This document shows positions 27,001 to 30,000 of a DNA stretch of 37,934 nt, one piece after another (within the stretch, counting starts at the first letter, position 1; each line of letters opens with the position of its first letter). The position numbers are program-made. Source of the DNA: a virus (Duplodnaviria > Heunggongvirae > Uroviricota > Caudoviricetes); the IMG/VR virus record IMGVR_UViG_2534682329_000010; one strand, written 5' to 3'.

Positions 27001-30000
27001 TAGACCTGACCGTGTTTATCGAAGTGGATCAGCAATGCGCATCCATCATTTTCGGTGGGGGTGTTTTGTGTTGCTGGTGGCTGTTTCTGGCTGAAATAAC
27101 AATCTTCCAGTTTTTCGAATACCTCCCATGCCTGATCGGTTTCCAGCATTTTTGCGTGGCGGGCTGCTCCGCGTTCTGTCCAGAGTATGAGCGAGCGGGT
27201 TTTGGGAGAGATGGGATTTTGTGAGTGACTTAAAGTCACCCGCAAATTCTTTAGTTCATCACCAATCACTTTGTAGAAGTGCTTACCTTCATAAAAACGC
27301 TCTGTGTTACGCGAATAATTCTTTTTGATGTTATCTGAATCTGTACCGTAAAGCTGTGCCAGTAACTCGGTAGTGATAACGGGAATTTGGTTGTGTGTAA
27401 TTGGGGAAAGAGTTTCGACAGAAATCTGGGTGGTCATAACGATAACTCCGTACATTTGGACATTATCGCCACCGTCAGGTGCTAATCATCGTGGTGGCGA
27501 ACTGTGCGGGGTTAGCACTACCGGGTACGGAAACCGGCGAGCCTTTCGGCTCCCCCACACAGCCCACCATAAATCGCGAATGTGGCTGTGCAAACGATAT
27601 GAAAAAAGACGCGGGCGCGTCTCATATCGCTCCGTAAACATCCGGGGTGCTAATCCCGACAACCGATTTTGCGGTTGCGTCGGAAATATAGCCCCGGACA
27701 ATGTGTCTGGTCAAGCACCTACATAATTCGTTCTACGTATCTGTCCATCTCCAGTCGAATATCAAGCATCATCAACATGCCATCAATAACTCCTTCCGCT
27801 TTCTGCAGGCGCTTGCCAATACAGGTATCCGAACACCCATGCTTTCGTGCCAGCCCCATAAAAGTCATTCCACCTACGTAATAATCCACCAACAAATCGT
27901 GCAAATCCTGATTTGTCTTGTTCAACCGGGCCATACAGCCACAAATTATCATTGCATCATCATCAGAACACTGAGGACGTGATTTCACTTTCGGCGGAAT
28001 TAATCCTTTAAAACCAGCAGCGATTGACGCCCAGGACACATCTTCGTGATTGTTTGCAGCCCATGCCCCCCACCGCTCCATAACCTGCTGAATATCACGC
28101 GCCATCGTTATCACCTGTAAGTTCGTAAATCTTCACGCCCAGCCGACCACCAGGAACGGACTGACCGCGCACAATATTAATTTCATCAAACTGCTCGTCG
28201 TCTATGAGTAGTCCGGCATGCGTCAGTGCATCCAGCGGTGCTTTCAGGATATTGTCCAGATCACGACGGCGCTTATCCGGTGGCTCTGCAATAATCTTTA
28301 TCGCCAGCCTTCCGGACAGGTTTAATTTCAGTCGCTGCTGGCGAACAATTAGCGCCACATCACGGCGATAACGCTCACCGGCTTTTGATACAAAATATGT
28401 GCTGCCACGACGTCGCCAGTAGGTGTTCACCGTTGGCGGGTAAGGCAAAACAAACTCTATACGCATCAGTAACCTCTTTTACCCGAGCACGCCGGTTGCA
28501 AAGGCGTGATCAAGAAAACGAAAAATTAAATCAACCTGGGAACCATGCTTTTCTTCGAACGCCAGCGGATCCGCATGAAGCTCGTTGTGATGCTCCCGAC
28601 ACAGCGGTAGCGTGAAAATATCGTGGGATTTTGTTCCCATTCCGCCCTGACCATGACCAATCAGGTGATGGGGATCGTCGGCTGGCTTACCACAACACGC
28701 ACACGGCTGTGTCTTCACCCAGCGCGTATATTTCTCATTTACCCAACGGCGACGTTTAGGTCGCTTCATGAAAGATTCCGGAGACTCCGGATCAACGGCA
28801 ATGCTGACCACCGTCTTTTCCTGTGGTGAGTTCTGTTGCTGGTGGACGTGAGGCGGTAACACAATATTTTTTGTGCGCTGCTTCAGTATGCTGGTAGCTG
28901 TCTGCTCTCCCGGTATGATGTCGCTTTCACTGTACACAGAGCGAATTTTTTCCGCCGGTAATCCCAGAGAACGACGTAATACTGCCTCCGGAAGCGCGTC
29001 CGCCACCTGATTGCAGACCGACCACCAGGATAATTCAGCCAGCGATAATTCCCGCTCTTGTGTGCCATTCATTGCGTGACGGATGACGTCAATCATCCAT
29101 GCTGACAAGTTTTGGTGAGCAAGTTGCCCAAGTGATTCGGATGTCTGGTCACGCAACTGGTTGTCGCAGTGCCAGCACAATACCATCGCACCGGTACCGT
29201 AACGATGCATAACGGTTTCACTGTGATGATAGTCACCATGAGGCCACTGGCAGGATTTGACATGACGCAACAGCCAGTCAGACAGTGCACCAGCGCCGCC
29301 AGCAGCACGAATCACCCGCTCATCGCTGAAAAATGGCAGTAATGATTTATCCTCCGCCAGCGGCTGGCGAACGGCAGGAACGACTCCTGATGGCAGACCT
29401 CGCATGCTTTTTGGTTCCGGTTCCACCAGCACTCGATGATTATGAAATACCCGCATGGATTCACGGCCCGGTTTTAGCACCACCAGCCCAAGTTCCGGTA
29501 CCGGAACAGGTCGAAGCAATACCCGCACGTTACCTCCAGATGCGTTGCTGGAACGTGTGGGACGGACGCGGTGGGCGTTCGGAATAAGGGAGTCTGACGT
29601 AGATTATCCAGTGACGATAATCGAGGCTGAGAGCTTTCCTAAACTCATACCCACGTCTGCGATAGTTCTGAATCAGCCACTCGGCCTGCTCTTCAGTGCA
29701 GGGGTCATGCTGGTACCAATCAGATTTAAATGCGTAAGAGTGCCGCCCGTGCCTGCTGGCAAAGGCGGCTGAATTATCAGAATTGTGTAGTCTGGAATTT
29801 TGCGCCATCGGCTTTCTCCGGTGGCACAGTGTTACTCAACAGGGGTTCAGCCCTGCGCTGAATTGTAGATGAATTCACTCATCTTCAAAAGCAGAAAAAC
29901 CAGCCTTAATCCCAGCCTCTTTCAGAGACGGCAACGATGTGACAAATTCATTTGCACGCAAAATAAAACCATCCGTCACAAGCCCATCCACAAAATGAAT

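Follow-up and report, generated by a model that had tools for sequence, protein, structure and literature searches.

Gene order around the Q antiterminator

We analysed a 37,934-nucleotide (nt) stretch of DNA from a Caudoviricetes virus (IMG/VR record IMGVR_UViG_2534682329_000010; hereafter the window), and in particular the control region between its gene for the Q antiterminator and its toxin, lysis and morphogenesis genes. On the minus strand a DUF968 gene (29528..28479) is followed by rusA (28466..28095) and by a 128-amino-acid Q gene (28105..27719). Past Q come, in order, a promoter of the form TTGACC-N18-TATATT, a hairpin with a T6 run, a non-coding stretch, an ORF6N-domain gene, an open reading frame (ORF) for a 239-amino-acid membrane protein, the B and A subunits of a toxin and two holins. 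An earlier note on this DNA had taken the promoter and hairpin next to Q for the late promoter pR', a 6S-like RNA and the terminator tR'. Our analysis indicates that this unit, consisting of the promoter PisrK and the small RNA IsrK, is probably the 5' end of a self-contained antirepressor switch, and that the late promoter cognate to Q probably lies about 830 bases further downstream, at 26849..26822, where it would gate the toxin, lysis and morphogenesis genes. The features from Q to the end of the switch are as follows.

28105..27719, minus strand: Q antiterminator gene, 128 amino acids, Q21/Q933 family (PF06530 and PHROG 79)
27714..27685, minus strand: PisrK, with -35 TTGACC at 27714..27709, an 18-nt spacer and -10 TATATT at 27690..27685 (10 of 12 consensus positions, and cassette homology)
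27678..27602, minus strand: small RNA IsrK, carrying the a1/b1 targets of C4 (Rfam isrK)
27678..27659 and 27658..27643, minus strand: IsrK hairpins 1 and 2, the latter with loop TTAGCAC at 27653..27647 (fold)
27623..27602, minus strand: IsrK terminator, with hairpin GAGACGCG/CGCGTCTT at 27623..27606 and a T6 run at 27607..27602 (scan and fold)
27574..27490, minus strand: C4-type antisense RNA, homologue of Gifsy-1 STnc1160, with loop GTGCTAA at 27518..27512 (Rfam C4)
27570..27475, minus strand: putative small ORF of 31 codons overlapping C4, with the C4 target TTAGCAC inside it at 27485..27479 (translation)
27437..26874, minus strand: antirepressor gene with an ORF6N domain, 187 amino acids, homologue of AnrP/Ant (PF10543 and PHROG 2379)

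The identification of Q in the earlier note is well supported. The ORF matches PF06530 (Phage_antitermQ) over the full length of the domain (E 3.2e-52, model positions 2-118 of 118 in a Pfam search), PHROG 79 ('anti-termination protein Q-like') and, over residues 12-89, the solved Q21 protein (E 1.4e-07). Identity with Q proteins of the Q933 type and their relatives is 82-87% (82% for the Q933-type proteins themselves), and only the extreme C-terminus diverges. No tRNA genes, such as those between Q and the toxin in Shiga toxin (Stx) phages, were found in this interval of the window.

The promoter next to Q belongs to an IsrK-type unit

The -35 hexamer of PisrK begins 4 nt past the Q stop codon, and the terminator ends at 27602, ahead of the late genes, so that in position the unit looks like a pR'/tR' pair. 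Both the promoter and the GC hairpin with its U6 run are present as the earlier note had described them. Hexamer matching alone would say little for the promoter, since 9 promoter-like sites occur in the 6.5-kilobase (kb) region as against 9.9 +/- 3.2 in shuffled sequences, which is not above chance; terminator-like sites are enriched in the same region (14 as against 5.7 +/- 2.3). We judge the unit to be real because of its homology to Rfam isrK and to related cassettes, and not because of its hexamer score. The segment 27678..27602 matches Rfam isrK (RF01394) with 74.3 bits (gathering score 50; E 2.9e-14) over model positions 1-77 of 77, delimiting a terminated transcript of about 77 nt whose 5' end is 1 nt from the start site predicted in the earlier note. 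Its minimum-free-energy fold has the structure of the Rfam family, with two 5' hairpins followed by a rho-independent terminator. The first two hairpins also match the c4-a1b1 family (RF03163), in an alignment that spans 27691..27639 and the full length of the model, with 45.6 bits (E 4.7e-10); this is 1.1 bits short of the gathering score of 46.7, a threshold that is not reached in the window and that the Gifsy-1 copy passes with 48.1 bits.

The 100 cassettes used for comparison come from viral contigs and from reference phages; similarity of Q or presence of the AGCAC motif guided the choice of loci, and the samples are biased accordingly. The promoter, both 5' hairpins and a terminator made of a hairpin plus U6 recur in about 100 related cassettes, and the core TTGAC-N14-YCGGGGCTATATT recurs in them behind at least 5 different upstream genes. 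Across these cassettes helix 1 is paired in 100% of cells and shows three doubly changed (compensatory) pairs, and helix 2 is paired in 85%. In slid-register controls for hairpin 1, no doubly changed pair was seen and pairing dropped to 24-48% of cells. The terminator comes in at least three different sequence versions that are out of register with each other, each of them a GC hairpin plus U6. A single structure line for all cassettes failed since these sequences differ and do not align in register, and the terminators were therefore folded one by one.

IsrK is followed by a C4-type RNA and an antirepressor gene

The segment 27574..27490 matches Rfam C4 (RF01695) with 76.3 bits (gathering score 45), and its fold is far better than those of shuffled sequences (z-score -5.4). 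Its loop, GTGCTAA, is complementary to TTAGCAC both in loop 2 of IsrK and in the downstream site. This three-way match between IsrK loop 2, the C4 loop and the downstream target is found in 98 of the 100 cassettes, which fall into four loop specificity types: AGCAC (the window), GGAAC, GGCGT (Gifsy-1) and AGGAAC. Prediction of the IsrK-C4 and C4-downstream RNA duplexes gave long, uninformative duplexes, and the table of loop matches was used in its place. In one cassette (L116, ~740 to 1000) AGCAC-type IsrK and C4 loops are combined with a GGAAC-type downstream site and with different sequence beyond; this is an apparent recombinant that would escape control by its own C4.

The AUG of the 31-codon ORF is at +109 from the IsrK start (+107 in Gifsy-1), and the ORF, if it is translated, would be the positional analogue of Gifsy-1 orf45 and of P1 icd. 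The gene that follows matches PF10543 (Pfam, E 1e-20) and, from its ATG at 27437, aligns with PHROG 2379 ('anti-repressor') over positions 1-187 of 187 (E 1.8e-90). Judged from these sequence features, 27714..26874 is an antirepressor switch of the P1 immI / Gifsy-1 isrK type.

The closest studied counterpart is in the Salmonella prophage Gifsy-1, where transcription of isrK-orf45-anrP starts from PisrK and for the most part ends at the IsrK terminator (Hershko-Shalev et al. 2016, PMC4825925). The subset that reads through is a translationally silent mRNA; free IsrK pairs with it in trans and opens the orf45 ribosome-binding site, and translational coupling then yields the AnrP antirepressor, which induces the prophage (PMC4825925). 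STnc1160 is a stable RNA processed from the read-through transcript (PMC4825925), and Rfam places C4 there. The 910-nt transcript of this locus ends at the IsrJ terminator (PMC4825925). In the Gifsy-1 sequence we find TTGACA-N18-TATATT flush with the antQ stop, followed by IsrK, C4 and a 187-amino-acid ORF6N gene, and the published nucleotide numbering (C18, G28, G31, A107; PMC4825925) fits the Rfam IsrK 5' end exactly. The order antQ-isrK-orf45(STnc1160)-anrP-isrJ is the same as in the window, from PisrK at the Q stop through to a second promoter-leader-terminator unit, and the window has in sequence all the parts of a locus of this type: a promoter of its own, IsrK, a C4-like RNA over a small ORF, and an ORF6N antirepressor. 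The two differ in that Q of the window belongs to PF06530 (Q21/Q933) and AntQ of Gifsy-1 to PF06323 (Q82), in the loop (AGCAC, not GGCGT) and in the small ORF (31 codons, not 45). In addition, the downstream unit of the window is of Q933/StxS type and not IsrJ, and a pertussis-like toxin follows in the window.

The immI region of P1 and P7 likewise consists of a promoter, the a1/b1 targets, a c4 antisense RNA cut from the same transcript, the a2/b2 targets over icd, and a coupled ant gene. The window shares this order of parts, has an Rfam C4 match and a c4-a1b1 match near threshold, and belongs to a set of loop/target types that behave like hetero-immune specificities. In contrast to immI, the upstream targets of the window end in an intrinsic terminator of their own and form a separate 77-nt RNA (a trans activator in Gifsy-1, PMC4825925), its Ant is of ORF6N type, and the cassette lies in a lambdoid late-control region and not in a plasmid-prophage immunity region. 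P4 CI/seqA is a related system (PMC4825925). A sequence deposited as 'Actinobacillus phage vB_Apl-pPE4' (PP818812.1, L002; hereafter pPE4) shares 96% identity with the window across IsrK, C4 and the start of ant; its neighbouring genes are typical E. coli prophage genes (YbcO, DUF1133, DUF1367), and its stated host may merit checking.

A probable Q933-type late promoter lies between the cassette and the late genes

Two further features stand between the antirepressor gene and the membrane ORF.

26849..26822, minus strand: candidate pR', with -35 TTTACG at 26849..26844, a 16-nt spacer, -10 TATCCT at 26827..26822 and a predicted start at A 26815 (homology to Q933-type pR')
26815..26767, minus strand: pR' leader of 49 nt, with a 5' hairpin at +2..+17 and a candidate tR' hairpin AAACCCGC/GCGGGTTT at 26791..26770, its 3' arm overlapping a T6 run at 26772..26767 (fold)

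DNA homology between the window and the Q933-type Stx phages (Sp5, Sp15, 933W, 24B) ends at 27744 and resumes at 26849..26761, where identity from the -35 through the first hairpin and U run is 84-86% (86% over 90 nt). Its counterpart in phages 24B and SC370 carries the annotations pR', qut and first terminator and directly follows a Q933-type Q gene. A cassette of about 870 nt fills exactly the interval from the Q stop codon to the -35 of the candidate pR'. For the Sakai prophages Sp5 and Sp15, PR' has been mapped by differential RNA sequencing (dRNA-seq) and the 3' end of its transcript by Term-seq, with a distance of 258 nt between the two (Sy et al. 2020, PMC7547250). From the start that we predict for TTTACG-16-TATCAT in the Stx phage to the last U of the second terminator the distance is exactly 258 nt, the published length of the PR' transcript. 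This spacing was used in place of the published Sakai start coordinates, which were given for a different version of the record and, in NC_002695.2, land within Q.

The candidate leader folds with -19.1 kcal/mol (z-score -3.4), and across 34 unique versions the core stem of tR', CCCGC/GCGGG, is nearly constant and its loop variable. Conservation of the element (27 unique versions) begins exactly at the -35 and is nearly invariant to about +14, while the 40 nt that precede it are unconserved. The element is present in single copy in the window. Among 80 loci with Q proteins of the same clade it is found downstream of Q in 76, whatever intervenes: it abuts Q in the Q933-type phages, follows an IsrK cassette in 40 loci, and follows other inserts in others, with Q cores 82-87% identical across these arrangements. 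The element is in this respect constantly linked to Q proteins of one clade. The terminator at 26791..26767 had been missed by our consensus scan, in which the greedy stem absorbed the T run.

By homology, and in register, 26849..26767 is a Q933/StxS-type PR' unit but not a StxS gene: homology ends at 26761, after the first hairpin, and both the 74-nt StxS small RNA and the second terminator (tR' at +258) are absent from the window. The window differs from the Q933-type Stx phages further in that its pR' is parted from Q by the 870-nt cassette, in its -10 (TATCCT, not TATCAT) and in its toxin, which is pertussis-like and not Shiga; a toxin moron in the late operon downstream and a closely related partner Q are common to both.

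Several observations concern this element and its surroundings. In the Stx-phage PR' transcript (24B, L001 6976..7233; Sakai Sp5, L146) a strong-looking hairpin plus U7 at +24..+49 must be read through without Q; the window has the homologue of this hairpin and no other terminator ahead of the late genes. The pR' -35 is overlapped at 26847..26838 (minus strand) by a 10-nt palindrome, TACGATCGTA, which in L046, L062 and L078 reads TACGTACGTA, again a perfect palindrome; this hints at a symmetric protein-binding site. In L045 (3956..4011) the promoter and start region are kept and the terminator hairpin has been lost by deletion; this locus may be a natural constitutive-late variant. The Q-pR' junction also holds a 124-amino-acid lysine/histidine-rich ORF in L042 (781..1155), in which an internal Met opens a hydrophobic, signal-like segment, as in a small secreted protein, and a 197-amino-acid ORF in L062 (3022..3615). 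From its contents the junction looks like a recurrent landing site, or hot spot, for the insertion of accessory genes.

The cassette is wedged between Q-like genes and native downstream units

The arrangement seen in the window recurs with other Q-like genes. In Gifsy-1, IsrJ (L147 33511..33406, minus strand) has a promoter of its own (TTGCAA-17-TATATT) and a terminator, and stands after the cassette at the position of a pR' leader. An IsrJ-like unit overlaps the 3' end of a Q82-type gene in cassette-free phages of Klebsiella, Enterobacter and E. coli, the Q proteins being 60% identical. A search of the downstream unit of the window for IsrJ homology gave nothing, even with E values of up to 5 admitted. 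Another promoter-leader-terminator unit likewise stands behind the cassette of pPE4, and in cassette-free E. coli phages a unit of this pPE4 type overlaps the 3' end of a DUF1133 gene (proteins 87% identical). Taken together, the window, Gifsy-1 with IsrJ and pPE4 show the cassette wedged between a Q-like gene and its native downstream unit in three Pfam families. By this comparison of sequences, IsrJ may be the terminated late (pR') leader of Gifsy-1, a counterpart of lambda 6S RNA and StxS.

Contexts of the cassette and the question of Q dependence

Among the 100 cassettes, the gene upstream is a PF06530 Q gene in 48, ninE in about 37 and a DUF1133 Q-like gene in 9; Gifsy-1 has the PF06323 AntQ gene there, and other genes are few. 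The ninE cases include Stx2 phage 24B and its relatives (Min27, YYZ-2008 and others), whose cassettes lie in the nin region and are 84-91% identical to that of the window, in the same order. There the promoter core, IsrK, C4 and ant directly follow ninE, about 2.5 kb upstream of a Q gene that has its own annotated pR', and are followed by roi and ninG and not by pR'. The PisrK core and initial transcribed region also stand behind Q-like genes of PF06530 (the window), PF06323 (Q82-type, Gifsy-1) and DUF1133 (pPE4). It is unlikely that one Q-loading site would be common to Q-like genes of three Pfam families and to a gene other than Q, and for this reason PisrK is probably not the pR' cognate to Q. 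No Q-binding element specific to the adjacent Q was found at 27714..27602, the same core standing behind ninE and behind all three families, and no motif is common to PisrK and the cognate-type pR'. One candidate for a common Q site was tried: ACATTG, a word present both in the PisrK spacer and in ACATTGCC, the sequence annotated as 'qut' in 24B. It was rejected, as pR' elements of the window type read ACTTTGCC or ACTACGCC there and thus have ACTTTG or ACTACG in its place.

In lambda, a constitutive promoter next to Q gives a short terminated leader, the 6S RNA, and the late genes need Q-modified polymerase. The general logic of the window is the same; the differences are the Q family and the fact that the unit next to Q is here probably not the cognate one, and neither a Q-binding element nor a sigma-dependent pause element was assigned in the window. 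It was on this model that the earlier note had read 27714..27685 as a Q-dependent pR' and 27623..27602 as tR'; the 77-nt RNA would then be a 6S-like by-product, and Q-modified polymerase would pass through ant and the downstream hairpin to reach the toxin and lysis genes. We consider this assignment probably wrong and its scheme as a whole unlikely. It can draw on the placement of the -35 just past the Q stop, where a pR' usually lies, on the strength of the promoter, and on a -10-like element, CAAAAT, at +8..+13 of IsrK (4 of 6 positions), where a sigma-dependent pause element could lie; the cassette also follows Q-like genes of three families, and published wording on the IsrK promoter, given below, agrees with it. 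CAAAAT is, however, also the conserved loop of RNA hairpin 1, including in non-Q contexts, and the same core and initial transcribed region recur after ninE with no Q nearby. From one Q subtype to another, the PisrK spacer varies at least as much as the adjacent Q genes (10 of 14 positions as against 78%). The three families of Q-like proteins would have to share a loading site, and a conserved Q933-type pR' is kept further downstream in nearly all loci with this Q. In Gifsy-1, PisrK-anrP transcriptional fusions gave 280 units with no induction and no supplied AntQ, although AntQ itself was never tried on PisrK, and the IsrK homologue was active in lysogens, with partial read-through of its terminator in the reporter assay without induction or supplied Q (PMC4825925).

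A dual control, in which Q would load at both promoters so that induction boosts the antirepressor in a feed-forward loop while the downstream pR' drives the late genes, appears slightly less probable again. The placement of the cassette directly behind Q-like genes of three Pfam families suits it, as does the 8-fold rise in transcription of an anrP fusion when IsrK was supplied in trans in Gifsy-1 (PMC4825925), of which induced AntQ is one possible cause. This effect is equally explained by translation protecting the mRNA, the arguments made above against Q specificity at PisrK apply here unchanged, and the two promoters share neither a general motif nor the ACATTG of the 24B qut. Least probable is that 26849..26767 is an inert leftover of recombination in a prophage that is defective or uses other late promoters, for instance just upstream of the toxin: its hexamers are weak, its homology to StxS stops after the first hairpin and a 10/12 promoter-like site lies ahead of the toxin genes, but the element is nearly invariant next to an unconserved 40 nt, is kept behind different inserts with a constant core stem and a varying loop, and stands in a window with a full set of large late-strand ORFs.

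A model for the switch and the late gate

We therefore favour the reading in which PisrK and IsrK open a self-contained antirepressor switch and the promoter at 26849..26822 serves Q. The workings that we propose for the cassette, whose parts, order, homologies and loop matches are seen in the sequence, are taken over from Gifsy-1, P1 and the Stx phages. By analogy with Gifsy-1 and P1, PisrK would fire in the lysogen and most transcripts would end at a leaky IsrK terminator. Read-through mRNA would be translationally silent, with C4-type pairing sequestering the ribosome-binding region of the small ORF. Free IsrK would compete for this pairing and so allow synthesis of the antirepressor and inactivation of the prophage repressor, IsrK and C4 together setting the threshold. 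Read-through transcripts of the cassette would end at the downstream hairpin, as the 910-nt transcript of Gifsy-1 ends at the IsrJ terminator. Q made after induction would then load at the 26849 promoter and carry polymerase past the 26791..26767 hairpin, and the modified polymerase would transcribe the membrane ORF, the pertussis-like toxin genes, the holins and the morphogenesis genes. The tie between toxin and induction through Q that the earlier note proposed would in this way probably survive, through a promoter and a terminator other than those it named.

Several points weigh against this reading. No Q-binding element was identified at either promoter, the Q21/Q933 elements having been published only in figures, which precluded a motif comparison, and Q action at either site is read from sequence, not from transcription. 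The hexamers of the candidate pR', TTTACG and TATCCT, match only 8 of 12 consensus positions and fall under the scan threshold. In Sakai Sp5 the homologous first hairpin with its U7 run lies inside the 258-nt StxS RNA and is read through without Q; because of this, and because the window has no second terminator, its late gate may be leaky. That the cassette is repeatedly placed directly behind Q-like genes could also reflect a functional link with Q, and Sy et al. (PMC7547250) describe IsrK as coming from an antitermination-regulated promoter.

We tentatively entertain the further idea that the position of the cassette is itself functional. Lodged exactly between a Q-like stop codon and the -35 of the late promoter belonging to the same Q-like gene, in PF06530, PF06323 and DUF1133 contexts, IsrK-C4-ant would borrow the late-leader terminator as its 3' end and be swept by early-operon transcription coming from Q. 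This could couple the output of antirepressor, and cross-induction of co-resident prophages, to the timing of Q; the view of IsrJ as the Gifsy-1 pR' leader would be a corollary.

Toxin, lysis and other neighbouring genes

As the earlier note had it, toxin, lysis and morphogenesis genes follow on the same strand; large minus-strand ORFs run on to about position 600. The genes downstream of the candidate pR' (26631..23910, minus strand), assigned by Pfam, PHROG 1521 and solved-structure matches, are the following.

26631..25912, minus strand: ORF for a predicted membrane protein of 239 amino acids (PHROG 1521, unknown function; no Pfam family)
25849..25436, minus strand: PltB-like B subunit (solved-structure matches)
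25458..24706, minus strand: pertussis-like A subunit (solved-structure matches)
24612..24178 and 24242..23910, minus strand: two holins (Pfam)

The membrane ORF holds an internal terminator-like hairpin with T7 at 26292..26269, and the 10/12 promoter-like site upstream of the toxin genes is at 26047..26020. The toxin is a pertussis-like AB5 toxin with the gene order B then A and an overlap of 23 nt (25849..24706). Its A subunit is closest to E. coli EcPltA (4z9c, E 9e-98), and its B subunit to Salmonella PltB and SubB (E ~1e-42) and not to the B chain of 4z9c (E 4e-16). Mitomycin C induces related ArtAB toxins that are carried on prophages (PMC5454059). A hok/sok-type toxin-antitoxin module lies in the nin region, where Rfam sok matches at 30681..30506 with 120.7 bits, overlapping a Hok-like ORF at 30568..30356 (minus strand).

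Implications

All of the parts described here belong to known families (isrK, C4, Q933-type pR'), and the overall logic is well known from Stx phages. Which promoter gates the pertussis-like toxin nonetheless decides how release of the toxin is predicted or probed: reporter fusions or deletions made at the Q-adjacent element would report on an antirepressor switch that acts upstream of induction, and not on the gate of the late genes. The published description of IsrK as arising from an antitermination-regulated promoter (PMC7547250) would be the same mis-assignment, and the comparison argues that the true late leaders are the downstream units, of StxS type in the window and IsrJ in Gifsy-1. 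The useful outcome is the probable reassignment of the late promoter, together with a pattern, the cassette between Q and pR', which suggests that IsrJ may be the late leader of Gifsy-1.

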